Origin: an uncultured Bacteroidales bacterium
GTDB lineage: Bacteria > Bacteroidota > Bacteroidia > Bacteroidales > UBA932
Assembly (NCBI GenBank): GCA_902491795.1
Contig: CABUIX010000001.1
Coordinates: forward strand, 24,054 to 88,053
DNA length: 64,000 nt
Direction: 5' to 3'
The notes under the pieces are model-generated. The model made no database searches, had not been told where the DNA came from, and saw nothing but the letters and a program-made list of their open reading frames with translations. A program made the position numbers and the translations under genes. Below are positions 15,027-37,345 of this stretch, in pieces. Numbering within the stretch: position 1 is the first letter of the stretch; each line of letters begins with the position of its first letter.

Positions 15027-16150
15027 ATCGATTCATTGTTATCCTCACCTGCTGCATCGCGTTGTCGGGATGCAGCAAGGTGTGGTTCCCTACCCCGGAG
15101 AGCGGTGTGCCCGGCAAAACCGAAGATTCCTCCACAGATGATGACGAGCCTGAGACATGGACCGAAATCAATGACAATGTATCCATTTCCGGGACCGAAA
15201 TCATTCCTCAGACACCGGACACATTCATGAAAGGCTATTGGCCCGACGGCAAACTCATTCCCGTAAGGAAAGGCAATGAATGGCAGTTGTTCTGGGGCGA
15301 ATCGACAGACGCGCTGACCGTCTCCGTCTCTCCTTTTCCCGAAGACCATATCGAATTCCTCACCCAGGACAGCAAGATTTGGGGGAAGGAATTCAGCAGG
15401 ATAGACGGATTCAATGACGGAGGGTCATGGTTCATATCTGTCTTTCCTCTTGACGGATCAGGAAGCTATGTCGGGTTCTTCCACGCGGAAAGTCACTGGG
15501 ACGCAAGCGGCATCGCCCACAAATCCATCGGTGTTGCATATTCCGATGACTACGGGGCGACATGGAGAGATCCGGAGCCCATCATCACGGATTCCAGACC
15601 AAAGCCGTCCGAACCGGATTGGACCGGACTCGGAGACGGATGCGTGATCTGGGACCAGACGAACTCGAGATACATATGCTATTACCAGGGCAAGATAGAC
15701 TCAGGAGCGAACGCCCTGTGCATGGCCGCTTCATCAGACAGGAATGGAGCACCCGGAACATGGAAAAAGTGGGACGGGAATGATTTCACCATTCCTGCCC
15801 ATGACGAGACGACCGGCCTTGGAGGGAAAAACATACCCGTCGACGGTCTTGCCGCGGTCCCCGGAGCCAATCCTTCAGTGATGTGGAACACATTCCTTGA
15901 CAAATGGGTAATGGTCTACGCATCATGGGCCAAGGCAATATACATGTCAACCAGCACGGACTGCACAAGCTGGAGCAGTCCGGTGAAAATAACAGGAAGT
16001 ACAGACAGTCCGGCCTGCTATCCGAATCTCATAAGTGAAGACGGAGACCTGACGGGCGGAGAGACAGTACAGATGTACTGGTCTCACAACCAGAACAACG
16101 TGACAGGAGAGAGAGAACTGGCCTGCGCAAAAATAAGATTCAGAAAATGA
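15017..16150 (+). CDS. Lipoprotein, Asp-box-containing beta-propeller protein, putative glycosidase (distant paralog of 7310-8797)
   Basis: Lipobox ALSGC. Asp-box SDDYGATWRD (about 15541-15570). Motifs GAPGTWKKWDGNDF and WVMVYASW. It overlaps susD by 10 nt and is ATGA-coupled to the next gene. Confidence 0.4.
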   Translation: MEVNRFIVILTCCIALSGCSKVWFPTPESGVPGKTEDSSTDDDEPETWTEINDNVSISGTEIIPQTPDTFMKGYWPDGKLIPVRKGNEWQLFWGESTDALTVSVSPFPEDHIEFLTQDSKIWGKEFSRIDGFNDGGSWFISVFPLDGSGSYVGFFHAESHWDASGIAHKSIGVAYSDDYGATWRDPEPIITDSRPKPSEPDWTGLGDGCVIWDQTNSRYICYYQGKIDSGANALCMAASSDRNGAPGTWKKWDGNDFTIPAHDETTGLGGKNIPVDGLAAVPGANPSVMWNTFLDKWVMVYASWAKAIYMSTSTDCTSWSSPVKITGSTDSPACYPNLISEDGDLTGGETVQMYWSHNQNNVTGERELACAKIRFRK

Positions 16151-21633: not shown

Positions 21634-21721
21634 CGTGATTGAATTTGCCGGAAAAGAATGCCGGATCTTACGCTGAATCGTAAATATAACAAAATGCAGC
21701 AAAAAAGGAAACCTCCGGCCC

Positions 21722-21760
21722 GATACAAAAAATTGTTCCGGCCCATCAGGACCGGAACAA
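21722..21760 (-). terminator. Rho-independent terminator downstream of tRNA-His
   Basis: On the minus strand, ttgttccggtcctgatgggccggaacaa (a 9-bp outer stem plus inner pairs) is followed by tttttt. Confidence 0.7.
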
Positions 21761-21767
21761 ACCAAGG

Positions 21768-21844
21768 TGGGGTGCGATGTGGGGCTCGAACCCACGACAC
21801 CTAGAACCACAATCTAGTGCTCTACCAACTGAACTAATCGCACC
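21768..21844 (-). tRNA. tRNA-His (anticodon GTG) with genomically encoded G-1 and 3' CCA
   Basis: Minus strand reads G-GTGCGAT-TA-GTTC-AGTTGGTA-GAGC-A-CTAGA-TTGTGGT-TCTAG-GTGTC-GTGGG-TTCGAGC-CCCAC-ATCGCAC-C-CCA. This is a full cloverleaf with a 7-bp acceptor, a GTG anticodon in a 7-nt loop and a TTCGAGC T-loop. The extra 5' G opposite C73 is the His identity element. Confidence 0.93.
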
Positions 21845-21949: not shown

Positions 21950-23731
21950 ATGGCAAAAGAAATAAAGTTCTCACTCGTCTACAGGGACATGTGGCAATCT
22001 TCCGGCAAATACCAGCCGAGAGTTGACCAACTGGTCAGGGTTGCACCGGCGATCATTGACATGGGATGCTTCGACCGCGTAGAGACCAACGGCGGCGCAT
22101 TCGAGCAGGTGAACCTCCTTTATGGCGAGAATCCCAACATTTCAGTCCGCAAATGGACTGCCCCCTTCCACAAGGTCGGCATTCAGACCCACATGCTCGA
22201 AAGAGGCCTTAATGCACTGCGGATGAACCCGGTTCCTGCTGATGTGCGAGAGCTGATGTTCAAGGTCAAGAAGGCGCAGGGCACAGACATAGCCAGGTCT
22301 TTCTGCGGACTGAATGACCACCGCAACCTCAAACTCTCCATTGAGTATGCGAAAAAGGCCGGAATGATTTCCCAGGCCGCCCTCTCAATAACCCACTCCC
22401 CCGTGCACACGGTGGAATACTACCTCGGCGTGGTTGATCATCTGGTGGAGTACGGTGCCGACGAGATATGCCTCAAGGACATGGCAGGAGTAGGCCGCCC
22501 GACATTCCTCGCAGAACTTACAAGGGACATTAAGAAAAAATATCCTGACATCAAGATCCAGTACCACGGACACTGCGGGCCCGGATTCTCTCCGGCATCA
22601 ATGCTTGAGGTGGCCCGTGCCGGCGCCGACTACATCGACGTTGCAGTGGAGCCTCTCGCCTGGGGCAAGGTTCACCCTGACGTGATCACCATCCAGCAGA
22701 TGCTGCGCGCAGACGGCTTCCTCGTCAAGGACATCAACATGGACGCATATATGGAAGTGCGCCGCCTCACGCAGGAATTCATCGACGACTTCCTCGGATA
22801 CTGGATCAACCCCAGCAATGCTGTCATGACCTCTCTTCTGGTAGGCTGTGGCCTCCCCGGAGGAATGATGGGATCGATGATGGCTGACCTCAAGGGATTC
22901 AAGGCCGCAATAAATGCCTCCGAGCGTGCCAACGGCAAGCCTGAGAGTTCTCTTGACACCCTGATGGTAAGGCTCTTCAACGAGGTTGAATATGTATGGC
23001 CGAGACTCGGATATCCCCCTCTCGTGACCCCCTTCAGCCAGTATGTCAAGAACACGGCCCTTATGAACCTGCTCGCAATGAGCCAGAACAAGCCGCGCTT
23101 CAGCACCATCGACAAGGACACCTGGAACATGATTCTTGGCAAGATGGGCAAACTGCCCGGCAAGCTCGCACCCGAAATCGTCCAGCTTGCGAAGGAGAAG
23201 GGAATGGAATTCTTCGACGGCAATCCCCAGGACGAATATCCGAACGAACTTCCGAAGTTCCGCCAGATGATGAAGGACGAAGGCTGGGACTGCGGCCAGG
23301 ACGACGAGGAGCTGTTCGAACTTGCAATGCACGAGAGACAGTACAGGGACTACAAGAGCGGTATAGCCAAGGAGAGGTTCAACAAGGAGCTCGCCGACCT
23401 CAAGGCAAAAGCCGGTGCACCGATAATCATCAAGCGCCCCGTTGTGGAGATGCCCGAGTTCGACATCGAGAAGTATGTCGAGAAATATCCCAAGGCAACT
23501 CCCCTGCAGGCTCCCGCAAAAGGCAAGATGCTATGGCAGATCGATGTCGTTGACGATTCAAAGGCACCGGTAGCCGGAACCGCCGTAAAGGCAGGAAAAG
23601 CCTGCGGATATGTCCAGACATATTATGGAATGGAAGAGATCATCCCCGCGGTTAACGGACGCATTGTAGCCGTGACCGCGCCACAGGGAAAGGATGTCGC
23701 CAAGGGCGAGATTGTCGCTTTCGTGGAGTAA
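21950..23731 (+). CDS. Pyruvate/oxaloacetate carboxyltransferase (OadA / PycB / transcarboxylase 5S-like) with a C-terminal biotinyl-like domain lacking the canonical MKM lysine
   Basis: HMGL-like TIM-barrel signatures: VYRDMWQS (RDxxQS), CLKDMAGVG (the carbamylated-Lys motif KDMAG) and IQYHGHCGPG (HxH metal ligands). A PYC_OADA-like middle region follows. The C-terminal hammerhead-like domain is (V)AGTAVKAGKACGYVQTYYGMEEIIPAVNGRIVAVTAPQGKDVAKGEIVAFVE. Confidence 0.7.
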   Translation: MAKEIKFSLVYRDMWQSSGKYQPRVDQLVRVAPAIIDMGCFDRVETNGGAFEQVNLLYGENPNISVRKWTAPFHKVGIQTHMLERGLNALRMNPVPADVRELMFKVKKAQGTDIARSFCGLNDHRNLKLSIEYAKKAGMISQAALSITHSPVHTVEYYLGVVDHLVEYGADEICLKDMAGVGRPTFLAELTRDIKKKYPDIKIQYHGHCGPGFSPASMLEVARAGADYIDVAVEPLAWGKVHPDVITIQQMLRADGFLVKDINMDAYMEVRRLTQEFIDDFLGYWINPSNAVMTSLLVGCGLPGGMMGSMMADLKGFKAAINASERANGKPESSLDTLMVRLFNEVEYVWPRLGYPPLVTPFSQYVKNTALMNLLAMSQNKPRFSTIDKDTWNMILGKMGKLPGKLAPEIVQLAKEKGMEFFDGNPQDEYPNELPKFRQMMKDEGWDCGQDDEELFELAMHERQYRDYKSGIAKERFNKELADLKAKAGAPIIIKRPVVEMPEFDIEKYVEKYPKATPLQAPAKGKMLWQIDVVDDSKAPVAGTAVKAGKACGYVQTYYGMEEIIPAVNGRIVAVTAPQGKDVAKGEIVAFVE

Positions 23732-23757: not shown

Positions 23758-23796
23758 GCAGGCCGCTGTCAACAATGACAGCGGCCTGCTTTTTTT
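23758..23796 (+). terminator. Strong rho-independent terminator
   Basis: gcaggccgctgtca-acaa-tgacagcggcctgc is a perfect 14-bp stem followed by a T7 run (23790-23796). Confidence 0.9.
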
Positions 23797-24013
23797 GCAA
23801 TAACGTAATATTCAGCGACTAATAAAAAATTTTATTTTGAATTATTCATAATTATACCTATCTTGCGCGACGCTGGCAGGCAAAATGAATTTCATCAATT
23901 CTGCAGAATCTTCTTTCTGCTTCGGGTTGGTGCGCTTTTCTTGCACGCCGGTCACATTTTAATGACACTACAAACCTGATGAAAGACCATTAGGTCCACT
24001 GCACGAATTGGCA

Positions 24014-24562
24014 ATGAACCGCAAGATACTCCACATAACACTGATAATACTGTCGGCGATTTCTGCCGGACACAAGGCGAAAGCCCAACTGCCTGACCAC
24101 GACAACTATGATTCGGGGTGGTCAGCACCATTTTACCTCAGACTCGAGAGTTCCGAGAAACACGAAGCTGATTTCCATGTCAATTTCCGGCAGAACGATT
24201 CTCTCATTCTGCCTGGCTATATGGGCACAGGCGAAAATCTCAAGGCGCTTGCAGACTCAATAGCGGCAATCCGTATCGGAGACAGGACAATCGACAGCCT
24301 GTACGTGTTTTCGTATTCTTCTCCTGAAGGCAACTACAATTATAACGTCGCCCTTTCCGGACGCCGTGCCGCCGCAATGCGCCGTTACCTTGAGACTGAA
24401 TATCCGGATCTTGTGGAAGTGATGTCCGCTACCCCGGACGGCGAGTCATGGCAGATGTTCAGGCAAAGGGCTCTCTCGGACAGCACCATAAGCAGCGAAC
24501 AAAGAGAAAGGCTGCTCTCGATAATTGATTCCGACAACAGTTTCGAGACAAAAAAGCCTTGA
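24014..24562 (+). CDS. Secreted OmpA-like-motif protein at the head of the pilus locus; probably the N-terminal part of a gene split by a frameshift
   Basis: Signal peptide MNRKILHITLIILSAISAGHKAKAQ. OmpA-C-like motif YSSPEGNYNYNVALSGRRAAAMRRYLE. The frame stops at 24560-24562, right after an A6 run (24550-24555). The next ORF's frame is already open from 24529. Confidence 0.5.
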   Translation: MNRKILHITLIILSAISAGHKAKAQLPDHDNYDSGWSAPFYLRLESSEKHEADFHVNFRQNDSLILPGYMGTGENLKALADSIAAIRIGDRTIDSLYVFSYSSPEGNYNYNVALSGRRAAAMRRYLETEYPDLVEVMSATPDGESWQMFRQRALSDSTISSEQRERLLSIIDSDNSFETKKP

Positions 24563-25302
24563 TAAAAGAGTGGGACCGCGCCTTGTGGAACAGGATTGTC
24601 CGGGAATGGTTCAGGGACATGCGCCGCTCCTTCATCCGTCTGGAGTGGACTGAAAATGTCTATGCCAAAGAATACTTCATCGGACGTCCGGCAGAATTGA
24701 CGGCAAAAGCATATACGACAATGAACCCCTTGTCGCGTCCGCCTGGAGAGATTGTCCTCGAAAGGACCATACTCGCCCTAAAGACCATCCTTCTCTACGA
24801 TGCAATGACCATGCTCAACGCAGAAGTCGAAGTCCCGGTCGGCAACAGCTTCTCCATAATGGTTGAAGATGTCTTCCCATGGTGGACCTTCGGTCCGAAC
24901 AGGAACAAATACAGTCTCGAAATGTGGGAGATGGGAATCGAACCGAGATGGTGGTTCCGCCGCAACGACAGGCGCGACCGACTATCCGGACATTTCATAG
25001 GTCCCTATGTCATGAGCGCAAGGTATGACTTCCAGTGGGACAGGGACCTGAACTACCAGGGTGAATACTGGTCAGCTGGTCTCAGTTACGGATACGCAAT
25101 GCCCATAGGGAATATTTTCAATCTCGAGTTTTCCGTCTCAGTTGGCTACGTCAATGCCGACTACAGGCATTATCAGCCTGACTACGACTATTCGCAGCTC
25201 TATCGTGACCCGTTCAGGACAGGCACCCTGTCTTATTTCGGGCCAACAAAACTGAAGGTATCCCTGGTACTTCCCATAAAAATCAAATACACCCGCAGAT
25301 GA
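24559..25302 (+). CDS. Beta-barrel-like (DUF3575-like) region without its own signal peptide or ATG; probably the C-terminal part of the preceding gene
   Basis: The ORF track starts it at a TTG. There is no signal peptide. Alternating aromatic/polar beta-strand patterns are present (GHFIGPYVMSARYDFQW, YWSAGLSYGYAMPIGNIFNLEFSVSVGYVNADY). Its stop is ATGA-coupled to the next gene. Confidence 0.45.
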   Translation: MIKEWDRALWNRIVREWFRDMRRSFIRLEWTENVYAKEYFIGRPAELTAKAYTTMNPLSRPPGEIVLERTILALKTILLYDAMTMLNAEVEVPVGNSFSIMVEDVFPWWTFGPNRNKYSLEMWEMGIEPRWWFRRNDRRDRLSGHFIGPYVMSARYDFQWDRDLNYQGEYWSAGLSYGYAMPIGNIFNLEFSVSVGYVNADYRHYQPDYDYSQLYRDPFRTGTLSYFGPTKLKVSLVLPIKIKYTRR

Positions 25303-26366
25303 CGACCTCAAGAACATGCCGCGGCAGGATTTTCAGTCTGCCGAAATGCCGCCGGTCCAGTCTGTCCTGGTCCGCCGTCTGCCTGTTTGCCGTGACACTG
25401 CTGCTTTCGGGCTGCCAGCTCAGGCCGCTTGTGGATCCGGAATTCGGGACCATGATCAAAATACGCATCAATACCGACGGGATACGCAACGTGACAAGCG
25501 ACATTTACAACGAAGCCATTCCTGTCCCCGAAATCGATCCTGGCGTCATGCACGTGCTCTTCTACGACACCGGGACCAACTCGCTGATTTCGGAGTCTTT
25601 CGTGAGCGAGAAGTCCACCGACGGGGACGGATACACTACAATATCCGGACGCGTCTCACTGGTGCCGGGCACCTACCATATAGTCAGCTACGACTTCGGA
25701 ACGGAATCAACGATTGTAGACGGCCACGAAAGTTTCGACCTGCTGCACGCGACTTCCGGATCCGTGTCCGAGACTGAACTTGCCTCATACTCATCCAAGG
25801 CACAGGACGGCAGCATCGTATATACCCCCGACCACCTGGTGGTATCGACAGACCGAGAGTACGAAATTCCCTACCATAACGGCATCCATATGATAGAGAC
25901 CGAAGCCTCGACGATAGTGGAGACATATTATCTGCAGATCAAGGTGGACGGGCTCGAATATGTCTCAAGTGCACGGGCATTCCTGTCCGGAATGTCGGGA
26001 AGCAGCAGCACGGCATCCGGAGACGCCGTCGACCAGGAGGGGTCCACGATATACTTCACACTCCAGAAAAGCGAAGACAACGGAGTTCCCGTTATCTGCA
26101 ACATATTTAACTGCTTCGGAAGGATTCCGGATGCCGAGAACGACTTGAGCGTAACATTCGACATACGAACCTCAGACGGCAGGACCGTGACCCGCGAATT
26201 TGACATAACTGACCTTTTCGAGAGTGAGGACTGCATCAACCACAACTGGCTGCTGCTTGAGGAAACTATCACCATAGACCCTCCTCAGACCACACCGGGG
26301 ACAGGAGGCGGCTTCGACCCTGAAGTCGGAGACTGGGAGGACGAAAACCACGAAATCGAGATATAG
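25299..26366 (+). CDS. Lipoprotein, FimB/Mfa2-type (DUF5119-like) pilus anchor candidate
   Basis: Long basic n-region followed by the lipobox LLLSGC. It sits directly before the fimbrillin genes. Layout resembles DUF5119/Mfa2-like proteins as I recall them (..YHIVSYDFGTE.., TPDHLVVS, AFLSGMSGS, FNCFGRIP). Confidence 0.45.
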   Translation: MTTSRTCRGRIFSLPKCRRSSLSWSAVCLFAVTLLLSGCQLRPLVDPEFGTMIKIRINTDGIRNVTSDIYNEAIPVPEIDPGVMHVLFYDTGTNSLISESFVSEKSTDGDGYTTISGRVSLVPGTYHIVSYDFGTESTIVDGHESFDLLHATSGSVSETELASYSSKAQDGSIVYTPDHLVVSTDREYEIPYHNGIHMIETEASTIVETYYLQIKVDGLEYVSSARAFLSGMSGSSSTASGDAVDQEGSTIYFTLQKSEDNGVPVICNIFNCFGRIPDAENDLSVTFDIRTSDGRTVTREFDITDLFESEDCINHNWLLLEETITIDPPQTTPGTGGGFDPEVGDWEDENHEIEI

Positions 26367-26401: not shown

Positions 26402-27604
26402 ATGAAAAAATTGATTTTTATTGCAGCGCTTGCGGCAGCAATTCTCCCGGGCTGCACAAAGAACGAGGTCAAACCGGAAGTGCCAGACCAGCCCATCAGT
26501 TTCACCACGGCTGTCGGCTCAAGCATCACTAAAACAGTCATTGATGACAATGTCTTCCCGACAACAGAGCAATTCGCCACCTTCGCTTACTGGCTTGACG
26601 AAGGCGAGACTTGGCCTGACGATGCAACCAAAGCAAAAGAGTACATTCCGTTCGGGACTGACAGCAACTCAAGGACATTGGTAAGTTACGATGAAGAGCA
26701 AAACCTCTGGACCACAGCGACTCCTTACTATTGGCCGACAACCGGTTCACTGACTTTCTTCTCATTCTACCATCCTCAAATAAAAGAAGTAACTTTTGAC
26801 ACGACCAAGGGACTGCAGTTCAGCAGGGATCTCGCAGGGAGCGACGACCAGGGCAAGGACATCATGGTTGCCGATGTTGTAACAGAGCAGACCAAGAATA
26901 CCGATAATGCCAACGGAAGCGGCTTCAACGGTGTTCCCACCAAATTCCGTCATGTGATGTCCCAGGTAGTGGACTTCTTCATCAACACTGAAATGGACTA
27001 TACCAACGGCCATGGCGATGGTACCTGGCAGGCCGGGGACATCAGCATCACCCTCAACAGCATCAAGATTCGGAACGTATATGTAAAGGCAACCTACACG
27101 AGCGGACTTGAGCCATCCGAGGCCAATCCCGGCACATGGTCAGAATATGCAGCCGAGGGCGGACACATGGTGACCTACACATGGTTCGATGCCACCCAGG
27201 ACGATGAGTTCCAGGTGACAAGCACGAAAACCCAGGTTCCCGACGCAACAATAACGGTAAGCGAAGGCACTGACTCCTATGATGTCACCAGAGGCGCAAT
27301 CCTGATTCTGCCGCAGAGTTTCGTAAATTCGGAATATCCGGAGAACGCGGATGCCGACATCGAAGTAATATATACCATCACCTATCACATTGCCAACGGC
27401 GGCACAATAGAGGAGCAGATAACCAGAGAAATAAAGCTCGCCGAGATACATGCGGCTCAGAACAATGCATGGCAGATGAACAAGAAAATCACCTACAACC
27501 TCACCATAGGTCTCGACCAGATTCTCTGGGCTCCTTCAGTGGTAAGCTGGGATGACTCCGCGGTCGAGGAAGATCACGACGTAGATGTTTCGCCTACAGA
27601 ATAA
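26402..27604 (+). CDS. Fimbrillin-family (Mfa-like) type V pilin lipoprotein 1 (likely stalk subunit)
   Basis: Lipobox ILPGC. ISFTTAVGSSITKTV is an N-terminal strand with a basic residue. Also TPYYWPTTGSLTFFSFYHP, DIMVADV and VPTKFRHVMSQVVDFFI, the fimbrillin-like pattern shared with the next gene. Confidence 0.7.
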   Translation: MKKLIFIAALAAAILPGCTKNEVKPEVPDQPISFTTAVGSSITKTVIDDNVFPTTEQFATFAYWLDEGETWPDDATKAKEYIPFGTDSNSRTLVSYDEEQNLWTTATPYYWPTTGSLTFFSFYHPQIKEVTFDTTKGLQFSRDLAGSDDQGKDIMVADVVTEQTKNTDNANGSGFNGVPTKFRHVMSQVVDFFINTEMDYTNGHGDGTWQAGDISITLNSIKIRNVYVKATYTSGLEPSEANPGTWSEYAAEGGHMVTYTWFDATQDDEFQVTSTKTQVPDATITVSEGTDSYDVTRGAILILPQSFVNSEYPENADADIEVIYTITYHIANGGTIEEQITREIKLAEIHAAQNNAWQMNKKITYNLTIGLDQILWAPSVVSWDDSAVEEDHDVDVSPTE

Positions 27605-28637
27605 CGGCTGCGCACTGCTTGCGCTTGCGGCAATGCTCCTGTCATCCTGCACGAGGGATGACAGGGCGGCCTTGCCGTCTCCTGCCATAACCTATCAGGT
27701 AGTCCGGACCGCATCCAAGGCCGACGGAACAGGGACATACGACACAGACTGTCCTTTCGTGACCTGGGCCTGGTACCTCCCGGAAAACTCAGCCTGGAAC
27801 GGTTCAGCAGAATCAGCGAAGCTGTACATTCCTGCGGAAACCGTCTCGCACCGGAACGGCAGCTGGACCACTGACTCACCATATTACTGGCCTCCGACCG
27901 GGTCCCTGACCTTCATGTCGCTGAGTCCCGCCACTCTCGGCACCGAAGCGGAATGCACTGCCGACGAGGGAATAATCCTGAAACAGTACGACATAAGCAG
28001 CCGACAGGAAACGGACCTTATGGTAGCTGATGTGGCCAGCGACAGGACAAGCAATCCGGTGCCCACTGTATTCCGGCACAAGCTGTCCAGAGTGACCGGC
28101 TTCAGCATCAACACGGACAAGGACTACAGCATCACCGGCCAGGACGGCACGCACCTCAAGGGCAGCAAGCGCTTTTTCATCAACGGAATTTCAATCCTGG
28201 GGCTAAACAGCACAGGCACTTTCAAGAGCGGGGCAAACACGGGCGCGGCATCTCCGGGCGAATGGAGCGGCCTGGCATCTCCAAAGGATTTCGCATGGAC
28301 CGAAGCCATGGCAACAGAAATAGCATGGAGTCAGGAAGGCACCGGAATTCCCGGTAACGGGCCTGGATACATTGCCGTACTTCCCCAGACTCTCGCATCG
28401 CAGTCAATCCTGATTGAATACACCATAAGGACCTATTATGACGACTCCGCACCAGGCAGCGACGGCAACTTCTCGGAAGAGAAGATAAGCGAACAGGTCG
28501 CCCTGTCCAGCCTTATGCCGGCCTTCACCGTCAACACACGGGTTGCTTTCAGCATCACGATAGGTCTGGACAAAATGAACTGGTCTGCCGACGTCCAGAA
28601 CTGGGACGACAGGCAAGGCAGCGACACGACAATATGA
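27585..28637 (+). CDS. Fimbrillin-family type V pilin lipoprotein 2
   Basis: Lipobox LLSSC. ITYQVVRTASKA, SPYYWPPTGSLTFMSLSP, DLMVADV and VPTVFRHKLSRVTGFSI make it a clear paralog of 26402-27604. Confidence 0.7.
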   Translation: MFRLQNNGCALLALAAMLLSSCTRDDRAALPSPAITYQVVRTASKADGTGTYDTDCPFVTWAWYLPENSAWNGSAESAKLYIPAETVSHRNGSWTTDSPYYWPPTGSLTFMSLSPATLGTEAECTADEGIILKQYDISSRQETDLMVADVASDRTSNPVPTVFRHKLSRVTGFSINTDKDYSITGQDGTHLKGSKRFFINGISILGLNSTGTFKSGANTGAASPGEWSGLASPKDFAWTEAMATEIAWSQEGTGIPGNGPGYIAVLPQTLASQSILIEYTIRTYYDDSAPGSDGNFSEEKISEQVALSSLMPAFTVNTRVAFSITIGLDKMNWSADVQNWDDRQGSDTTI

Positions 28638-29548
28638 GAAACCTCAATTTGAACTTGATCTCCATGGCATCCGCGGCCCTTCTGGCCGTGGCGGCCGCAT
28701 CATGCTCCGTAAGGGTGAACGAAACAGAAAAACGGGACATCATCTTCGATGTCGCAGTGGCTGCAAATACACGAAACGCTTCGGCAGCAGCTCTTTTCCA
28801 CCCTGAAGACGTGGACATAGCAGTCTGCGGGTATTCCCTTCCCGCATCAATGTCATGGAGCAGCGGCAACCAATATGCCGTACTCGAGATGGACGGAGTC
28901 AGGGCCACTCACACGGAAGGACACATATGGGCTCCATCCGAAAGCCACAAATGGCCAGACGGTGACAGAACCATGACAATCTTTGCATATTCACCTTACG
29001 GACGCGGTGAATTCGGTGATGACGGAAGCATACGCGTGAACGACTATTCGGTTTCCGAAGGTGGCGACCTGATGTTCTGCGCGGCCGAGGACCGCAGCTA
29101 CAACACGCTGGGCAGAATCAATCTTTCGTTCACCAGAGCACTCTGCATGGTCGACTTCAGCGTGATGTCATCACTTGACTACTCCAGAACACCTACAGTT
29201 TCGAGGCTCGAGATCTCCGGCCTTTACTCAGAAGGAGACTTTTGCACACAACCTTCTCCGGTCTGGACCACGAAAGGCGAGACATGCGGTTTTCTCTTTT
29301 TCGAGGGAGAAACGCCAGTCACTGACCAGACCATTGATTTTGGTGAATGCCTTTACATGATACCGCAGGACGGCACAATGAAAATCACCCTTACCCTTGA
29401 CCTTCAGACAGGCGATGCCGTTCAGGAAGACCTGGTCCTGACCGCCGAGGAACAAGTCAGCTGGCAGACGGGCAAGCATTATTCATATATCCTCAAAATC
29501 GGCAACGACCTCCGACTCACAGTACAAAAAGCGAGTGCCAATGTTTGA
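28634..29548 (+). CDS. Fimbrillin-family type V pilin lipoprotein 3
   Basis: Lipobox AAASC. IIFDVAVAANTRNAS, HKWPDGDRTMTIFAYSPYG, DLMFCAA and INLSFTRALCMVDFSV. Its start is ATGA-coupled to the upstream stop. Confidence 0.6.
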   Translation: MRNLNLNLISMASAALLAVAAASCSVRVNETEKRDIIFDVAVAANTRNASAAALFHPEDVDIAVCGYSLPASMSWSSGNQYAVLEMDGVRATHTEGHIWAPSESHKWPDGDRTMTIFAYSPYGRGEFGDDGSIRVNDYSVSEGGDLMFCAAEDRSYNTLGRINLSFTRALCMVDFSVMSSLDYSRTPTVSRLEISGLYSEGDFCTQPSPVWTTKGETCGFLFFEGETPVTDQTIDFGECLYMIPQDGTMKITLTLDLQTGDAVQEDLVLTAEEQVSWQTGKHYSYILKIGNDLRLTVQKASANV

Positions 29549-30500
29549 CAGAAGAACCCTCATCGCAGCGGCAATTGCATCGCTCGCTGCCGCCGGATGC
29601 GGCAAACATACTGTACAGGAATCCGCAGGGATACCCATTTCGTTCAGCGGAAGTGTCGAGACGAAGGCACTGCTGGACAACTCCGGCCTGCAGGCAGAGA
29701 CCGTCCTCATCAACGACATCCATGTCGCCGGTGACGGGACACAGTCAATCTACATGAAGGACGTCGAACTTCAGCATGCCGGAGGCAGTTGGGAGACGGA
29801 TCCCGTCTACTACTGGACAAAGGGAGGATCACATCATTTCACGGCCCACATTGCCGGTCAGGGGCTGGACTTCATATCCGGAGGCAGCGACAGAAACGCG
29901 GACAGACTGAGCTCAACGGCCGAAATAACGCTGGGAACCGACAACCAGCCGGACATACTCTATGCATTTGCCGAACGTGACATGGAGACCGCCGCAAATC
30001 CCACAGGGACCGTAGCACTTGAATTCAGTCACGCCCTCGCTGCCGTAAGAATAAACATAAACAACATCAGCAGGAAATATTTCCGGCTTGAATCCTGCCA
30101 CTTTGAGGGCATCGGCACCACGGCCGGCATAGAAATTTACCGCAGTGGCGGACCTCAATTCAGCGGACTCTCCGGCCAGGAGACAAGTTCGTATGCCGAG
30201 AGCCACGACGAAACCATCTCGGAAGGTCAAACGCTCACGCTCTACGGCAACGCCGAAGCTGACGGCAGCCTCCTCGTATGGCCCCAGAATCTTGGCAGCG
30301 CCATTCTTGTTCTGGAATTTTTCGGCAGCCCCGACAGCCAGACAAGCGAAACACAAAAAATACCCCTGGCCGGAACAGGCCTCTCCAACTGGCTTTCAGG
30401 AAAAAGATACACTTACGACATAAATCTCTCAGACGAGAACATAAACGTGACTTTCAGCATAGTGCCCTGGACAGTCAATGACGTGACAATCAATACGTAG
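29535..30500 (+). CDS. Fimbrillin-family type V pilin lipoprotein 4
   Basis: Lipobox LAAAGC. IPISFSGSVETKALLD, DPVYYWTKGGSHHFTAHIAG, DILYAFA and VALEFSHALAAVRININ. Confidence 0.6.
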   Translation: MPMFDRRTLIAAAIASLAAAGCGKHTVQESAGIPISFSGSVETKALLDNSGLQAETVLINDIHVAGDGTQSIYMKDVELQHAGGSWETDPVYYWTKGGSHHFTAHIAGQGLDFISGGSDRNADRLSSTAEITLGTDNQPDILYAFAERDMETAANPTGTVALEFSHALAAVRININNISRKYFRLESCHFEGIGTTAGIEIYRSGGPQFSGLSGQETSSYAESHDETISEGQTLTLYGNAEADGSLLVWPQNLGSAILVLEFFGSPDSQTSETQKIPLAGTGLSNWLSGKRYTYDINLSDENINVTFSIVPWTVNDVTINT

Positions 30501-30508
30501 TGCGACAC

Positions 30509-31381
30509 ATGAGAAAGATTACAGCATACACTCTCGCCCTCGCCGCCATACTTTCAGGATGCGGGAAATCTCCCCTGCCCCAAACCGGCAGCGCCGAAAT
30601 TCTCGTCCTGTCAGATATGGTATCAGCATACGGCAGCCCCCTTTCAAAAGCGGAAATCAATGAAAACAACGCCTTAGGGAACACCCTGTATCTGAACGAG
30701 ACCCTGCGCAAGAGCTTCTCCATGAAGCCTCTGAACAACCCCGAAAACGGCATCTACGCCACCGGCAGCAAATGGGAAAGCGGTGAATATTCATTCTACG
30801 CATGCATGCATTCCGGCAACGGAATAAGCGGTGTTGCCGGTGACGGAAGGAGTTTCACTGTCGTGCAGCCGACAGACACACCTTCTGCAGACGGCTCCAA
30901 CGGCAGCTTCAGCGACTACCTGCTGTCATACACTTTCTATGTAAGCGACGGCAGTTCCCGTCCCATGGTCAGGCTGCAGATGGCACATGCAGTCTCATCA
31001 GTGGAACTTCATTTTGTCAAACCTGCAGGAGCGGCAGACACGAAGGTGCTTAACGCCAAGGTCAGCGGCGTAAAATATTCTGCATCCTACAATGTCAACA
31101 ACCACACGGACAGCGACATCAGGTGGACGGTTGTGACTGGCAGCGAAACTACGGACTATTCCCGAGTCACTGAAAGTCCGTCCGAAGAATTCAATGTGCC
31201 GGAAGAAGGTCCGGACGGCTCAATGTATCCGGACGGGAGCCTGTATTTCTCTTTCCTGACATGCCAGCAGGCTGTGGACAACGTGACTGACCCCGTGACA
31301 ATAAGCGTCGCATACGAAATCAACGGCCAGTCATTCAATGCGTCCTTCAGCCTTGACCAGGTTCAGGGAGTAAGCAACTGA
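30509..31381 (+). CDS. Fimbrillin-like lipoprotein 5 (divergent)
   Basis: I place the start at the ATG at 30509 (MRKITAYTLALAAILSGC lipobox). SKWESGEYSFYACMHSG, DYLLSYT and VRLQMAHAVSSVELHFV follow the same pattern more loosely. Confidence 0.5.
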   Translation: MRKITAYTLALAAILSGCGKSPLPQTGSAEILVLSDMVSAYGSPLSKAEINENNALGNTLYLNETLRKSFSMKPLNNPENGIYATGSKWESGEYSFYACMHSGNGISGVAGDGRSFTVVQPTDTPSADGSNGSFSDYLLSYTFYVSDGSSRPMVRLQMAHAVSSVELHFVKPAGAADTKVLNAKVSGVKYSASYNVNNHTDSDIRWTVVTGSETTDYSRVTESPSEEFNVPEEGPDGSMYPDGSLYFSFLTCQQAVDNVTDPVTISVAYEINGQSFNASFSLDQVQGVSN

Positions 31382-31505: not shown

Positions 31506-34500
31506 ATGAAACATATCGCAAGAATACTGACACCCGTGCTGCTGCTGTCCGCTGCAGCCGCATGCGTCCGCAATCTGGAGCCTGAAAGTTCAACTGAAAT
31601 AAGACTCAATGCAGGCATTTCTCCGGTTGCCACGGCTGTCAAGGCCAGCGGACCATACAACCCGGGCAGTACGGAGACATTGAACATCCAATTGCTGCGC
31701 AAAGAATATGACGGAAGCCATGCGGGCCCCCTGTCAGCAACCATGGGGACTCCCGATCCATCCAATTCATACCTCAGGCCAATAGAATTCGAGACTCCTC
31801 AGTTTTTCCCTGACAAGACCTCGGAAATCGGTTTCGTGGGATGGTATCCGACGGCAGCCGCAGAGAATGGCCTGAGTTTCGACAGCAGCACCGGGACCCT
31901 GGAATACGACATTCCGGGCGACACCGACATGATGGTCAGCAACTTTGTCCAGGGAAGCCTCGAAAGCGGGTTGGACCCGCTGGTCTTCTCGCATGCCCTC
32001 TGCCAGTACGCGGTTTCCGTATATGCAGTCGATGATGATGCCGCAGAACAGTGGAACGACTCCTACGGAACGATCAAGGAAATATATGTCGCAAGCCTTC
32101 CGTCCGGCATGACTCTGACCCTTCCTGACACAGAAGCCGAAAAAGCCTCATTCAGCTACTTCGGTGAAGACTCGCAATACACGGTCAGCACCGGCATCAG
32201 CTCACTTCCGGTCGGTTCAGCAGCCAAAGAACTCGCCGGGACAGTAATGGCCGCTCCGGCCTACGACGGAGCGATAACCGTGAAGGTACTTTTTGAGAAG
32301 GAAGACGGAACAAGCACTGAAAAGAACATTGTGTTCTCCAGGAATTTCAGTGCAGGGTACCGCTACGGACTTACCCTCAGGTTCAGTCACCGCGGCATAA
32401 TCGAAGCCGAAGCCACCGTGGAAGACTGGCAGGAAGTTGAGGTCGAAGTCGGACTGGAAGACGGCAAGACATATTTCGACCTTTCAGGAAACGGCACTTC
32501 AAACAGCTACATAGTGTCCTCAGCCAACCTTTCGTATTGTTTTGACTGCACCGTGAAAGGAAACGGAGTCAACACGGTCACCGACCATGACGGCAACGTG
32601 TTCAGGCTGCCCGACACTGATGTTTCCCTTTCACCCGACAGAATAGGCATAATAAGGTCAATGGCTGTCCTGAAGAAAAATTCCGACGGAAGCTTCAGCC
32701 CAGTTCCGGAATCGGAAAGGGACAATCCCGAGCTCATGCTGAGCCTCGACACCGAGACCCCGAGAGAAGGGAAGGTAATGTTCACCGTGCACGGCAATCA
32801 GGCAAACAGCCAGGACTATTCCCTGACATACAAGGGAAACGTGCTCATAGGCGCCTACAAAGGAGAGACGCTTCTGTGGTCGTGGCATATATGGATAACG
32901 GACAGACCTGACACCCAGGGATACGGGAACGGATATTCATCCCTTGACAGGAATCTGGGGGCAGTGGCTGACAATCCGGAAGACGTGGCCCAGAATGCCG
33001 GCCAGGATGCCGCACATGTGCTCACGACGGGATTTTTCTACCAATGGGGCAGGAAGGACCCGCTTTCGCGTTTCGACATAGACCCCGAAATGAACCAGGA
33101 CAACTGGCAATCCTTCCAGTCTCAGGAACTTGTGAGCATCAGCGAGGCCCACAAAAACCCCAGGGTAATGTACTGGTCCGGCAGTTCATCAGACTGGACT
33201 ACGGACACAAATGACCACCTGTGGGGATATTCAAACCAGAGAGACGACGTGGGGAAGACACTTTATGATCCCTGTCCTCCCGGGTACAGGGTTCCTGACA
33301 CGAAGGTATGGACTGAAAGCGCCCAATATGAACTGAAGCCGCAGACAGCAAGCGGATATGCCTACGGATATGTGTTCGAGATGGACGGCAACCAGTCAAT
33401 ATATTATCCTAAAACCGACTATCTCGGAGCGAGCGGCATTAGCGGACGCATAGAAGTCATGACGGCCGAGACTGACCCCAACAATCCTTACATATACCTC
33501 AACTCTGTCAGACCTCACATCTGCAGCGACTTCACCGGGGAGTCCGGCACCACGCCCGGACACGAGTCCCTTGCACACCACTTCGTGTTCAGCCTGGGAA
33601 TGGACGACAGCAGCGACTACATTCCGTACGAAAAGGACAAGGCCGGGGCAAGGGCAAACGCCATGCCGGTACGCTGCATCTCGGAGAATGCCGCATCAGC
33701 AACAACTGACCTGTCCTCTGTCCAGACGGCGAACTGCTATATGGTATCCCGCAACGGGTATTTCAAGTTCAGGGCGAACCGCAGGGGCAACGGAGTGGCC
33801 GGATTCAATTCCTACATCAACAATGACAACGCCAACACATATGTCGACATTTCCGGAGGCATAAATCCCGAGATTCCCGTCAACAGCGGCTGCCATGTGG
33901 ACCTTCTGTGGTGGCAGGGAGAACTCGAGGAAGGAGAGACATACCTTGAGTTTGTCGACGGCAATCCTACTTCGGCCGAAATAGCGGACAATGTCCCGCT
34001 GGCAATGGTCGACGGAGGAAAGCTTGATGACCAAGGCTACGCATATTTCCATGTCCGCGAGAACATGCCGTCATACGGCAATGCGGGCCTTGCACTATAT
34101 GACGAGAACGGAACTATACTCTGGACCTGGCACATCTGGTTCATCTCCAACGAGCAGAACGCCACCCTGGGAGACTATATTGTCATGTCCAGGAATCTTG
34201 GCGCAACCTATTCCCCTTACTCTGCAGCCGGAGACTTCAGCCTGCCGGAAAGCAGTACCGAAGAGACATACGGCTTCTACTACCAGTGGGGAAGGAAGGA
34301 TCCTCTTTTCGGGCCCGGCAAATGGTGCAGGAAATCCGGCGGGACCTGGAAAGTCGAGGACTGGAGCGAAGGTCCGGACAAGGCCCCCGCGACAACGCTT
34401 AGCGAAGTCATGTCAAATCCCCTGCACTTCTACACCAGCAGCAACCAGTGGTGGCAGACCACCTACACTCCAGGCACTGATATGATTCAGGAAATCCGTA

Positions 34501-34964
34501 ACTTCTGGGGATATGTGGGGCGTCAGGACGGCGGCCAGAATTTCGTGAAGACCATGTATGACCCCTGTCCTCCCGGCTACAGGATAATCAACAACCTGGC
34601 ATTCGAGAGCGCCGGCATGTGCCAATCCGTTGAAGAAAAAGAATTCAGCCTCAGTTTCGACAATTATTCTCTCTCGCAATCGGGCATAAGGGTTGACGGA
34701 AACGATGACGTGACCTCCACATACATAAACGGAGGTAACGTGTCCGCACAGATGCTCTGGCTGCCGAATTCCGGAATGATTGACAGCAGCGGAAACTATA
34801 TCCAGCAAGGCAGCAACGGATATCTCAATACCGCTACGCCCAACAAATCCGGTCAACAAATGCGCAACATACAATGGTATCCCGGAGATTCCTCTTACCA
34901 AATCAGCCAAAACGGCCAGAGCTATCACATCCCTGCAAGACCCGTACGCTGTCAGAAAGAATAA
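31506..34964 (+). CDS. Giant pilus-associated lipoprotein: N-terminal fimbrillin-like domain plus two tandem copies of a beta-sandwich/FISUMP-like lectin-type module (tip adhesin candidate)
   Basis: ATG at 31506 (MKHIARILTPVLLLSAAAAC lipobox). Fimbrillin pattern: IRLNAGISPVATAVKAS, FVGWYPTA, DMMVSNF, LVFSHALCQYAVSVYA. Module 1 (about 32463-33686) and module 2 (about 33687-34961) each contain AN(S/C)Y(I/M)V, LW(S/T)WHIW, RNLGA, Y(Q)WGRKDP, YDPCPPGYR and PVRC. Confidence 0.65.
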   Translation: MKHIARILTPVLLLSAAAACVRNLEPESSTEIRLNAGISPVATAVKASGPYNPGSTETLNIQLLRKEYDGSHAGPLSATMGTPDPSNSYLRPIEFETPQFFPDKTSEIGFVGWYPTAAAENGLSFDSSTGTLEYDIPGDTDMMVSNFVQGSLESGLDPLVFSHALCQYAVSVYAVDDDAAEQWNDSYGTIKEIYVASLPSGMTLTLPDTEAEKASFSYFGEDSQYTVSTGISSLPVGSAAKELAGTVMAAPAYDGAITVKVLFEKEDGTSTEKNIVFSRNFSAGYRYGLTLRFSHRGIIEAEATVEDWQEVEVEVGLEDGKTYFDLSGNGTSNSYIVSSANLSYCFDCTVKGNGVNTVTDHDGNVFRLPDTDVSLSPDRIGIIRSMAVLKKNSDGSFSPVPESERDNPELMLSLDTETPREGKVMFTVHGNQANSQDYSLTYKGNVLIGAYKGETLLWSWHIWITDRPDTQGYGNGYSSLDRNLGAVADNPEDVAQNAGQDAAHVLTTGFFYQWGRKDPLSRFDIDPEMNQDNWQSFQSQELVSISEAHKNPRVMYWSGSSSDWTTDTNDHLWGYSNQRDDVGKTLYDPCPPGYRVPDTKVWTESAQYELKPQTASGYAYGYVFEMDGNQSIYYPKTDYLGASGISGRIEVMTAETDPNNPYIYLNSVRPHICSDFTGESGTTPGHESLAHHFVFSLGMDDSSDYIPYEKDKAGARANAMPVRCISENAASATTDLSSVQTANCYMVSRNGYFKFRANRRGNGVAGFNSYINNDNANTYVDISGGINPEIPVNSGCHVDLLWWQGELEEGETYLEFVDGNPTSAEIADNVPLAMVDGGKLDDQGYAYFHVRENMPSYGNAGLALYDENGTILWTWHIWFISNEQNATLGDYIVMSRNLGATYSPYSAAGDFSLPESSTEETYGFYYQWGRKDPLFGPGKWCRKSGGTWKVEDWSEGPDKAPATTLSEVMSNPLHFYTSSNQWWQTTYTPGTDMIQEIRNFWGYVGRQDGGQNFVKTMYDPCPPGYRIINNLAFESAGMCQSVEEKEFSLSFDNYSLSQSGIRVDGNDDVTSTYINGGNVSAQMLWLPNSGMIDSSGNYIQQGSNGYLNTATPNKSGQQMRNIQWYPGDSSYQISQNGQSYHIPARPVRCQKE
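32463..33686 (+). repeat. Adhesin module copy 1 (protein-level repeat; boundaries approximate)
   Basis: SNSYIVSS...GETLLWSWHIWITD...LDRNLGA...GFFYQWGRKDP (33039-33062)...LYDPCPPGYRVPD...PVRCISE. Confidence 0.55.
33687..34961 (+). repeat. Adhesin module copy 2 (protein-level repeat; boundaries approximate)
   Basis: TANCYMVSRNGYFKF...NGTILWTWHIWFIS...MSRNLGA...YGFYYQWGRKDP (34281-34304)...MYDPCPPGYRIIN...PVRCQKE. Confidence 0.55.
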
Positions 34965-34984
34965 AAACATTTTATTGAGTCAGC

Positions 34985-37345
34985 ATGAACAATCGCAAAT
35001 ACAGCACTCTACTGGCCGTCCTTGCCATAGCGGCCCTGTCTTCCTGCACCAAGCAGAACTTCGGCAATCCCGGAGAGATTACCGTGGAGACTTCCGGATC
35101 AATGGACATCCTGTGCTTCACAGGCACGGAACAGTCCGGGGGCCCGGCCGGTCTGCAGTCAACAAAGGCCCTGATTTCATCAACATCATCCGAAACCATG
35201 GAGGCCAATTTCGTCAGAATCGACGACGTCAACGCCTTCAGCGCCCCGGAAACGGCATACCCCCGACTGTCGGAAGCTTATGTCACGGAAGCTACGATTT
35301 TCGCTCCCTCAAGTTTGTCAGGAGCCATGCCTCTGCGCAACACTGTATTTGAGCCGGAGCAGCATTACCGCTACGAAATAGCGTCAGCAACCACCGACAC
35401 CACATTCTACAAGACAAGGATGGTGGGGTGGTATCCGCGCACCTGCGTACTGGGCAGAGACCAGGAAGGACAGGCTGCAACTGCCGGCTTCGACCAGTTC
35501 CCGTCGTTCTGGAATGACGGGACATCCACCGGAATTACTTTCGGAGGGATGCTTGACGGTCAGACCGACATCATGGTCAGCAACATGAGGGAGGGAATGC
35601 ACCAGAGCAACGCATATCACGAAGGCCAAAGCGGAGCGGCAGCCCCTTTCGGATCTTCCAATTTTTTCACTTTCAGGCACTATCTGACTGCAGTCAGACT
35701 CTATCTGCAATGCAGCAGCAGCGATCTGTCCCTGGTATCATGGGGAAAGATTGAAAACGTGATATTTCCGGACCAGCCGACAAGCGTCACTATAAGACTT
35801 CCGGAAGAACCCGGTGAAACCTTCGGAGAGCCGGTAGAAGATTCCTGGGCCGATCCAAAGGACCTGGGGATAATAACTTCCGCAATGACGGACGGTGCGG
35901 AGACGGTCAGCTACCCGTTCGCCCTTGTTGACAAAGTTGACGATTCCATTCAGGGGAAAATCTACCTTGGATACATGATGGTCCAGCCGGACCGTCCGAC
36001 AGCTTTCGAAATTCACACAGATGAAGGTGTCTATCGGCTGGAGATTCCTCTTGAATATGCAGCATCCGACGGAAAGGCCCGTACGCTGCTTGAAGCAGGG
36101 AAGATATACAACCTGAACATAAATATAAGTACTGACGGGAGACTGTCAGTTTTCGTAGGGAACGATGATGAGGTGAAATTCAGGGACCTTTCTCCCTGGA
36201 ACGTGACGGAAGGGAGATATCAGACAGCAAACACATACCTGATCAACACCTCAGAAGACACCGGTGCCGACGGACAACCCGTATACAGGGGTTATTTCTT
36301 CAATGCCATGCAGGTCGGCAACGGGGATAAAGGAAAGCTGAATGTTGCCAACAGGCAACTGTATCCTGCGGACGGCACGCGGATCCACCCGGTTTCGGCC
36401 AGCATACTTTACCAGACCCAGCTCAACACAGTCAGGAATGTGGAGCTGGTCGACGGACACGTGAGGTTCATACTGAACGAAAAATGCTATGACCAGAATG
36501 ACCCTCTTCAGGCAAATGCCGTGATTGCCGTCCATGACGAGGAGGGGAACATCCTGTGGTCCTGGCTCATCTGGGTCACCAGGGAAGCAAAGGCCGTGGA
36601 CTTCCCCGACGGAGGATTCTCGATGCTCAACATGAACCTTGGAGCCAATACCGCCGGTCCGGTGAACGGAGATCCCCTCCCCACATACGGTCTGTACTAC
36701 CAATGGGGACGCAAAGATCCTTCTCCCAGACCTCCCAGCTACAACTTTGACATGCGCAGCATGGAAACAATCCAGTTCTTCGGCCCCAACGGCGAACCGG
36801 TCAACTATGTGTCGGAGTTCTCCTCGGACGAAAACACCATCGAGGACAGTGCCCGCAATCCCCTGCTTATAATGGACCAGAACATACAGGGACCGAACTA
36901 CGCATACGACTGGCTATACTATGAAATCGACCAGTTGTGGGGCGAATCGACAAAGACGATCTATGATCCGTGCCCATATGGCTACAAGGTTGCGGACGAT
37001 GAAATCGAAAGGCTTTTCATCGCGGCACAAAACAGCTCACAGGCCGTGACCTATCAGAACCAGACCATTGGCAGAAACATTCCAGCAGGCACACTAGGTT
37101 CCAGTGAAGCGGTCTTCTTCCCCTTCGCGGGAAGAAAAGGATATGCCGCCGGAGTCCCGGACAAGGGGCATCCGTGGATGGAAGTAGGAAATTCGGGCGA
37201 CTACCAGGACGCCAGAATCAGAGTCTCAGGACACCGCAGCTCAAGCGTGCTGAACGGGACAGGTGTTTCTGTCGGGCAGGAAGCCAACAGGACCAGCGCT
37301 GCTCCCGTACGCTGTGTACGCTATTCCGCAGAAAGCCTTGAATGA
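34985..37345 (+). CDS. Large pilus-associated lipoprotein: N-terminal fimbrillin-like domain plus one beta-sandwich/FISUMP-like lectin-type module (second tip adhesin candidate)
   Basis: Lipobox ALSSC. Fimbrillin pattern: MVGWYPR, DIMVSNM, FFTFRHYLTAVRLYLQ. The C-terminal module holds TANTYLIN, GNILWSWLIWVT, LNMNLGAN, YGLYYQWGRKDP (36698-36721), IYDPCPYGYKVAD and PVRCVRY. Confidence 0.65.
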   Translation: MNNRKYSTLLAVLAIAALSSCTKQNFGNPGEITVETSGSMDILCFTGTEQSGGPAGLQSTKALISSTSSETMEANFVRIDDVNAFSAPETAYPRLSEAYVTEATIFAPSSLSGAMPLRNTVFEPEQHYRYEIASATTDTTFYKTRMVGWYPRTCVLGRDQEGQAATAGFDQFPSFWNDGTSTGITFGGMLDGQTDIMVSNMREGMHQSNAYHEGQSGAAAPFGSSNFFTFRHYLTAVRLYLQCSSSDLSLVSWGKIENVIFPDQPTSVTIRLPEEPGETFGEPVEDSWADPKDLGIITSAMTDGAETVSYPFALVDKVDDSIQGKIYLGYMMVQPDRPTAFEIHTDEGVYRLEIPLEYAASDGKARTLLEAGKIYNLNINISTDGRLSVFVGNDDEVKFRDLSPWNVTEGRYQTANTYLINTSEDTGADGQPVYRGYFFNAMQVGNGDKGKLNVANRQLYPADGTRIHPVSASILYQTQLNTVRNVELVDGHVRFILNEKCYDQNDPLQANAVIAVHDEEGNILWSWLIWVTREAKAVDFPDGGFSMLNMNLGANTAGPVNGDPLPTYGLYYQWGRKDPSPRPPSYNFDMRSMETIQFFGPNGEPVNYVSEFSSDENTIEDSARNPLLIMDQNIQGPNYAYDWLYYEIDQLWGESTKTIYDPCPYGYKVADDEIERLFIAAQNSSQAVTYQNQTIGRNIPAGTLGSSEAVFFPFAGRKGYAAGVPDKGHPWMEVGNSGDYQDARIRVSGHRSSSVLNGTGVSVGQEANRTSAAPVRCVRYSAESLE
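36215..37342 (+). repeat. Adhesin module copy 3 (protein-level repeat; boundaries approximate)
   Basis: It has the same ordered motif set as copies 1 and 2, in the adjacent gene. Confidence 0.55.

Follow-up and report, generated by a model that had tools for sequence, protein, structure and literature searches.

In type V pili, the free C-terminal donor strand of one subunit enters the groove that N-terminal cleavage has opened in the previous subunit, polymerisation is lost when as few as one or two residues are removed from the C-terminus, and donor strands are lacking in tip pilins (PMC13655056). The ligands of the pili of gut Bacteroidales are largely unknown (PMC12632263). Here we describe two adjacent genes, termed A and B, in a 64,000-nt stretch of DNA from an uncultured Bacteroidales bacterium (GenBank assembly GCA_902491795.1, contig CABUIX010000001.1, positions 24,054 to 88,053 of the forward strand), which is referred to below as the window and whose positions are used throughout. 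The predicted products begin as type V pilin lipoproteins and continue into copies of a large module, two in A and one in B, and we give a little better than an even chance to the reading that both are terminal type V pilins showing static ligand-binding heads.

C-terminal lectin-like heads have been found on tip pilins before, among them pilins diversified by diversity-generating retroelements (DGRs). The DGR-diversified Bacteroides type V tip adhesins BfrT, BthT, and BunT have been characterised and carry C-Lec heads (Macadangdang et al., bioRxiv 10.1101/2024.11.15.621889), and fusions of FimA-type proteins with DUF1566/Fib_succ_major were catalogued in 2017 (PMC5758913), hence the novelty that the sequence-only reading, the first to describe the locus, gave to this architecture of a type V tip was overstated. 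The domains DUF1566 and Fib_succ_major, the latter also known as FISUMP, for Fibrobacter succinogenes major paralogous domain, constitute the C-Lec-type heads of DGR targets, some of which have FimA-type N-termini (PMC5758913; 10.1101/2024.11.15.621889). The ligand-binding heads belong to this group both in DGR targets (PMC5758913) and in Legionella Lcl, whose C-terminal DUF1566 domain binds glycosaminoglycans (PMC11162425).

Proteins A and B resemble BfrT, BthT, and BunT as predicted lipoproteins with a pilin-fold N-terminus and a C-terminal globular head, lectin-like in the described adhesins, which sometimes have a connecting middle domain as well, and putatively so in A and B; in being encoded downstream of anchor and stalk genes, which are candidates in the case of A and B; and in being predicted at the fibre tip. 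Unlike these adhesins, which are made hypervariable by a retroelement, the heads of A and B are static and ancient, A has two of them in tandem, and each adds a conserved beta-sandwich. DGR diversification was considered and rejected, as neither the window nor 81 related loci held the template and variable repeats (TR/VR) of such a system, that is, a same-strand repeat pair with adenine-biased mismatches, in a search that did not include reverse transcriptase; long repeats touching the module ends were likewise absent from the 64-kb window. A and B are also comparable to static type V tip and accessory pilins, namely BovFim1C and, in Porphyromonas gingivalis, Mfa4/Mfa5 and FimC-E, which follow the stalk genes, lack a donor strand, and bear extra distal binding domains (PMC12632263, PMC13655056). 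However, the domains of the P. gingivalis accessory pilins are of other types, tandem heads have been reported in none of these proteins, and the head of A and B shows no sequence similarity to any solved pilin. Legionella Lcl shows on a stalk a lectin-like head that binds host glycans, as is proposed for A and B, and falls in the same loose DUF1566/Fib_succ_major grouping, which has been used for DGR targets (PMC5758913), but is a trimer on a collagen-like stalk, without a disulfide, from a different phylum, and gives no direct match to the window proteins. With the Fib_succ_major/FISUMP domain (PF09603, TIGR02145), taken together with DUF1566/Lcl_C (PF07603), the module shares the order NLGA, aromatic-W, CPxG(Y/W)R, VRC, a conserved Cys pair, and the lipoprotein context. 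In contrast to the FISUMP models of 176-187 aa, the C-terminal half of our module is ~270 aa long with large inserts and a signature of its own, YQWGRKDP, and it is always preceded by a ~150-aa beta-sandwich that ends in (I/L)LW(S/T)WHIW. To our knowledge, the composite of beta-sandwich and divergent FISUMP domain has not been described as a family, nor have tandem heads on one pilin, a conserved pair of double-headed and single-headed genes with three ancient head lineages, or static heads free of a DGR signature.

Both open reading frames (ORFs) were found as the sequence-only reading had placed them. ORF A spans 31506-34964 on the plus strand (1152 aa counted from the ATG, with an alternative TTG start at 31491) and is adjoined downstream by ORF B (34985-37345, plus strand, 786 aa). 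Their parts are as follows.

31506..32462, plus strand: N-terminal fimbrillin (type V pilin) part of gene A, matching Mfa_like_1 over aa 97-308 (4e-11), with lipobox Cys20
32463..33695, plus strand: head module A1 (A aa 320-730), placed by motifs, alignment, BLASTP, and an orthologous clade of its own across 19 loci
~32463-32900 and ~32901-33695, plus strand: beta-sandwich and FISUMP-like halves of A1, the latter with PVRC at its end
33696..34964, plus strand: head module A2 (A aa 731-1152), placed by AlphaFold2, by the family consensus against PF09603, and by its own clade
33696-34142 and 34143-34961, plus strand: beta-sandwich and FISUMP-like halves of A2
34985..36169, plus strand: N-terminal fimbrillin-like part of gene B, from hhalign to A and Fim1, with lipobox Cys21
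36170..37345, plus strand: head module B1, also labelled Bm (B aa 396-786), placed by motifs, alignment, BLASTP, and its own clade
~36170-36580 and ~36581-37342, plus strand: beta-sandwich and FISUMP-like halves of B1

The ~400-aa module is confirmed in two copies in A and one in B, homologous over their full length. End-to-end alignment of A1, A2, and B1 with MAFFT gave ~29-30% identity over ~400 aa with 56 invariant columns, and pairwise BLASTP E-values were 8e-21 (A1-A2), 3e-18 (A1-B1), and 4e-20 (A2-B1), both comparisons covering the whole length of the module and not short motifs alone. As a control, 50 shuffles of A2 reached at most 25 bits, compared to 72-80 bits for the real pairs, therefore the repeat is real and far beyond chance. 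The string of motifs read earlier from the sequence was recovered by regular-expression search in the proposed order and at the proposed coordinates, save that copy 1 reads SNSYIV instead of AN(S/C/T)Y. It runs through LLWSWHIW (A aa 456), ILWTWHIW (A aa 871), and ILWSWLIW (B aa 523); RNLGA (A aa 482 and 896) and MNLGA (B aa 550); (F/Y)YQWGRKDP at A aa 511, A aa 925, and B aa 571, which correspond to nt 33036-33062, 34278-34304, and 36695-36721; YDPCPxGY(R/K)(V/I) at A aa 587, A aa 1018, and B aa 660; and PVRC at A aa 721, A aa 1146, and B aa 774.

By profile and model, the module consists of an all-beta, immunoglobulin (Ig)-like half and a divergent FISUMP (Fib_succ_major) half. AlphaFold2 modelled the whole of A2 with 69 homologues at pLDDT 84.5 and pTM 0.89, with residues 1-164 all-beta, in agreement with the beta-sandwich that had been proposed, and joined to the mixed second half as one unit; the C-terminal half modelled alone reached pLDDT 81.7 and pTM 0.86. 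The resemblance to FISUMP/TIGR02145 holds for the family, whereas the window copies themselves lie under all curated thresholds. A consensus emitted from a hidden Markov model (HMM) of 109 modules and scanned against PF09603 and TIGR02145 matched the former at 2e-11 (44.9 bits, cutoff 33.9), with consensus positions 139-353 against profile positions 37-187 and thus from the NLGA motif to the VRC end, and the latter at 2e-8 (35.1 bits, under the cutoff of 41.65). One relative, P0023, passes both curated cutoffs (56.5 bits against 41.65 for TIGR02145), PF09603 matches at E<=0.01 occur in 16 of 136 scanned relatives (8/69 and 8/67 in two sets), and one relative also matches Lcl_C. The one credible Foldseek match, weak but sensible, came from BFVD, where a phage protein that carries the annotation 'Fibrobacter succinogenes major paralogous domain' was the single match of high probability (0.87). 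At the profile level the module is accordingly taken as homologous in its second half to Fib_succ_major/FISUMP, the window copies having diverged too far for the models. Across the family the DPCP cysteine is invariant and the VRC cysteine nearly so (>=90% conserved), and the two are a putative extracellular disulfide. The entry PF26707, listed for some relatives, is 'DUF8237', and its faint match was set aside as uninformative.

That A and B both start as fimbrillin lipoproteins could be established by different routes, Mfa_like_1 for A and hhalign for B, with a lipobox cysteine in each (A ...LSAAAAC, B ...AALSSC). The N-terminal part of A matches Pfam Mfa_like_1 (PF13149) at 4e-11 (43.7 bits against a cutoff of 27), and its profile aligns with that of the neighbouring fimbrillin Fim4 at an hhalign probability of 98.3%. 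The N-terminal part of B had no match in the Pfam scan, and its orthologue profile aligns with that of A (probability 99.8%, E 2e-28) and with that of the neighbouring fimbrillin Fim1 (96.2%). By homology, then, the N-terminal parts of both are of type V pilin type. Their orthologues have, 25-60 residues after the lipobox Cys, a basic residue set in T-(K/R)-(A/S/G), and the Cys together with the downstream K/R motif is kept in 19/19 orthologues of A and 19/19 of B: in A as a basic residue (AVK/TRG) ~25-45 residues past the Cys, in B as T-(K/R)-(A/S)-L-I. Type V pilins are freed by a protease that cuts at this position (PMC13655056, PMC12632263). At the other end, head modules add ~830 aa to the pilin part of A and ~390 aa to that of B, and neither protein has a pilin-type strand at its C-terminus, each stopping 3-9 residues past PVRC (9 residues in B).

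A and B close an 11-gene plus-strand operon with overlaps or small gaps, in which a weakly OmpA-like gene, a DUF3575 gene, and a DUF5119 gene are followed by five fimbrillin lipoprotein genes (Fim1 to Fim5), A, and B. A pattern scan with one genome per species found at least 557 module-encoding loci, 80 of which were kept, nearly all of these 80 under Bacteroidales titles; the window itself matches a human-gut-type metagenome scaffold (ENA ERZ28656518). The same arrangement of a Fim4-like gene, a Fim5-like gene, an A-like gene with two modules (three in locus L016), and a B-like gene with one is present in 18/80 kept loci, where Fim4 and Fim5 orthologues stand directly upstream of the A-like gene and DUF3575 and DUF5119 occur upstream wherever the flank extends far enough. 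The operon order was thus seen in at least 18 other species, including Alistipes, Tidjanibacter, other Rikenellaceae, Muribaculaceae, Ca. Cryptobacteroides, Ca. Egerieisoma, Bacteroides caecigallinarum, and others. In a neighbour-joining tree of 57 modules, A1, A2, and B1 form three separate clades with every one of the 19 loci in each, therefore the triplication is old and the heads have been maintained one by one. Identity within clades is 46-57% in the beta-sandwich and first FISUMP part, compared to 31-47% in the insert and the YDPCP-to-PVRC part.

Two kinds of deviation were observed among these orthologues. The three modules of the A-like protein of L016 (7574-11338) include a first and second on very short adjacent tree branches, which shows that head A1 was recently duplicated in tandem within the protein. 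Furthermore, B-like orthologues at L011:10624-15472, L014:11379-16151, and L016:11356-16251 run 400-850 aa beyond the head module, and those of L005, L007-L009, and L015 (~1200 aa) also extend past the head, whereas B of the window stops right after its module; the extensions scanned (L005, L014-L016) had no Pfam domain save one weak RicinB_lectin_2 match in L016.

The module is not restricted to pilins. A HMMER scan of 1.84 billion representatives (clusters at 50% identity) gave 20,265 proteins at E<=1e-3 and 6,538 at E<=1e-30, in which the module occurs up to five times. The family profile includes some columns of N-terminal partners, and the weakest matches may be ordinary FISUMP proteins. 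Partner domains among relatives include Mfa_like_1, BACON, Big_2, DUF4988, fn3, LRR, Laminin_G_3, GH18, and GDSL lipase; Mfa_like_1 is the partner in 11/67 proteins other than A and B, and the fusion of fimbrillin and module is widespread, not peculiar to this genome. NCBI never names the module itself. Its names for relatives are 'BF2992 family fimbrillin-A clan protein', 'DUF4906 domain-containing protein', 'BACON domain-containing carbohydrate-binding protein', and 'fimbrillin family protein', the last applied among others to a 680-aa protein common to B. ovatus, B. xylanisolvens, and others whose cluster has 388 members. Representatives of 1,000-2,100 aa (P0196-P0224) carry three to five module copies, and multi-head architectures are therefore common in the family beyond pilins. 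In Bacteroides ihuae (L071, 3497-17600), six consecutive module genes of 730-780 aa were observed, two of them NCBI-named as fimbrillin-A clan and DUF4906 proteins, and in B. caecigallinarum (L028, 1-11706) five consecutive module genes, one NCBI-named as a BACON protein; these tandem arrays suggest local expansion of head variants.

These features can be arranged into a plausible scenario for the fibre tip. A and B would be made as lipoproteins with a pilin-fold N-terminus bearing the usual basic cleavage motif, and in place of a free C-terminal donor strand their pilin parts would continue into rigid two-domain heads, each an Ig-like beta-sandwich packed on a divergent, disulfide-containing FISUMP domain, two in tandem on A and one on B. 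Since the C-termini are buried under 390-830 aa of heads, both proteins should act as strand acceptors only and hence as terminal subunits; a pilin part followed by heads, encoded by the last genes of the operon, is also what has been described for tip pilins (PMC12632263, PMC13655056). Once at the tip, three different, non-diversified heads, probably glycan-binding, would adhere to host, dietary, or bacterial surfaces. Ligand binding is predicted because the heads are homologous to the FISUMP/DUF1566 group of ligand-binding heads, because many surface scaffolds and enzymes carry them as an appendage, much as they would an accessory binding module, and because their distal part is the most variable. 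The earlier proposal of a multivalent or multi-specific set of tip adhesins therefore fits the operon and the pilin hallmarks, while its ligand-binding part is a prediction of this kind.

Several observations weigh against assigning A and B to a ligand-binding tip. For every member of the family, ligand, surface location, cleavage, and polymerisation are inferred from sequence. We know of no studied precedent for an operon with a pair of tip-type genes of which one is double-headed; A and B may be alternative tips or parts of one tip complex. When the full proteins were scanned against Pfam and NCBIfam at E<=0.1 and four separate segments against Pfam at E<=10, A1, A2, and B1 gave no match even at these permissive values, the only match being Mfa_like_1 on A. 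No solved structure resembles either model: searches of PDB sequences with a single copy and with a 69-sequence profile gave no module match, those with P0136 and the A N-terminus gave chance-level matches only, Foldseek with the whole module found weak Ig-like/adhesin matches in the PDB (best InvE at E 0.03), and the C-terminal half found noise, so that the C-type-lectin-like fold suggested earlier could not be demonstrated for either model. Moreover, the H, R, K, and D of the most conserved motifs, WSWHIW and YQWGRKDP, could be an active or metal site and not a structural core.

The alternative that best survives, though we consider it unlikely, is that A and B are stand-alone surface lipoproteins resembling surface glycan-binding proteins, in which the fimbrillin fold is a spacer and the heads capture dietary or host glycans for nutrients. 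It draws on the wider family, where the module follows BACON domains in 14/69 and 7/67 relatives of the two sets, one relative being NCBI-named as a BACON carbohydrate-binding protein, and where GH18 and a GDSL lipase are further fusion partners, and on the finding that some DGR-targeted tip-like proteins proved not to be surface-exposed (10.1101/2024.11.15.621889). Against it, A and B share a closely packed operon, kept in at least 18 species, with five fimbrillins, DUF3575, and DUF5119; both retain the pilin-type K/R motif; and the operon has no SusC/SusD pair next to it, the polysaccharide-utilisation locus lying apart at 1-18000. Less probable still is a structural or regulatory module, a bulky cap which terminates or starts the assembly of the fibre, or protects its tip, and whose conservation reflects assembly constraint. 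The strongest conservation does lie in the interface motifs of beta-sandwich and FISUMP domain, not in an obvious variable pocket, and each head forms a conserved clade of its own, which might suit fixed structural parts, but the module occurs in thousands of proteins without a pilin part, which argues for an autonomous function, and its homologues in DGR systems are ligand-binding heads (PMC5758913). The least probable alternative, and a very improbable one, is an enzyme displayed on the pilin scaffold, e.g. a hydrolase of surface polymers: its His, Arg, Lys, and Asp residues in WHIW and YQWGRKDP are invariant or nearly so across the family, and the FGE-sulfatase family, related to C-type lectins, includes enzymes, yet Pfam, NCBIfam, and PDB searches returned no catalytic family, the sole family link is to FISUMP, for which no catalysis is known, and in its fusions with real enzymes (GH18, GDSL lipase) it is the module that has been added.

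If A and B are indeed ligand-binding tip pilins, a more tentative extension, which we regard as possible but rather doubtful, is that together they form a three-headed fibre tip in which each head has a different ligand, the heads having diverged before the split of Rikenellaceae, Muribaculaceae, and Bacteroidaceae, and that the module is a new family resembling carbohydrate-binding modules (CBMs). Such a tip would be the first multi-specific type V pilus tip complex, and the unit of beta-sandwich and YQWGRKDP FISUMP domain would be a very large undescribed CBM-like glycan-binding family in thousands of Bacteroidales surface proteins. Quite apart from this extension, the locus provides a conserved, non-variable set of probable tip proteins with three separately kept heads in Alistipes, Tidjanibacter, and other abundant gut lineages, and thus a tractable target for ligand discovery. 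As current domain libraries miss or only graze the module family, a dedicated model would improve the annotation of proteins now called 'hypothetical' or 'fimbrillin family'.

The genes upstream of A in the operon are the following.

24008..24562, plus strand: small, weakly OmpA-like protein, first operon gene (Pfam OmpA E 2.5e-4, below cutoff), overlapping the next gene by 4 nt
24559..25302, plus strand: DUF3575 protein (Pfam DUF3575 1e-33)
25299..26366, plus strand: DUF5119 lipoprotein (Pfam DUF5119 9e-19), conserved in syntenic loci
26402-27604, plus strand: Fim1, fimbrillin-like lipoprotein
27585-28637, plus strand: Fim2, fimbrillin-like lipoprotein
28634-29548, plus strand: Fim3, fimbrillin-like lipoprotein
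29535-30500, plus strand: Fim4, fimbrillin-like lipoprotein
30500-31381, plus strand: Fim5, fimbrillin-like lipoprotein (Mfa_like_1 26.2 bits, just below the cutoff of 27)

Fim1-Fim5 match Pfam Mfa_like_1 at 3e-19 to 1e-5, and all have a lipobox Cys followed by an N-terminal strand and T/S-K/R, which makes them candidate stalk or adaptor pilins. The DUF5119 protein has a lipobox without the T-K/R-A motif of the other subunits and is a possible anchor-type subunit, and DUF3575 holds the same position in the syntenic loci L003, L005-L009, L022, L027, and L030. Upstream, a strong hairpin at 23758-23789 (perfect 14-bp stem, 4-nt loop, then a T-run) separates the operon from the preceding gene; it is likely the intrinsic terminator of that carboxylase-like gene (21950-23731) and marks the start of the operon promoter region. 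A phase-variable invertible promoter was sought upstream of the operon and rejected, this terminator hairpin and weak inverted repeats being all that was found. Downstream of B lie a convergent MatE gene and then the dcw cluster.

The polysaccharide-utilisation locus contains a hybrid two-component regulator, GH43-like, PKD, SusC/SusD, and BNR-like proteins, and between it and the pilus operon lies a 1246-aa ORF (18070-21810, minus strand) with weak DUF748/AsmA-family matches, which may be an envelope lipid-transport-type protein. The SusC-like TonB-dependent receptor gene (10288-13436) seems to be split into an 802-aa ORF (Plug and CarboxypepD_reg, 10288-12696) and a 236-aa ORF without Pfam match (12726-13436) directly ahead of SusD (13449-15026), which may reflect a frameshift, a pseudogene, or an assembly error. 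Finally, paralogous GLAA-B beta-barrel/beta-helix proteins (2343-4217 and 16147-18006) flank the locus and share DNA repeats (families D1-D4) of 73-87% identity at a constant spacing of ~13.8 kb.

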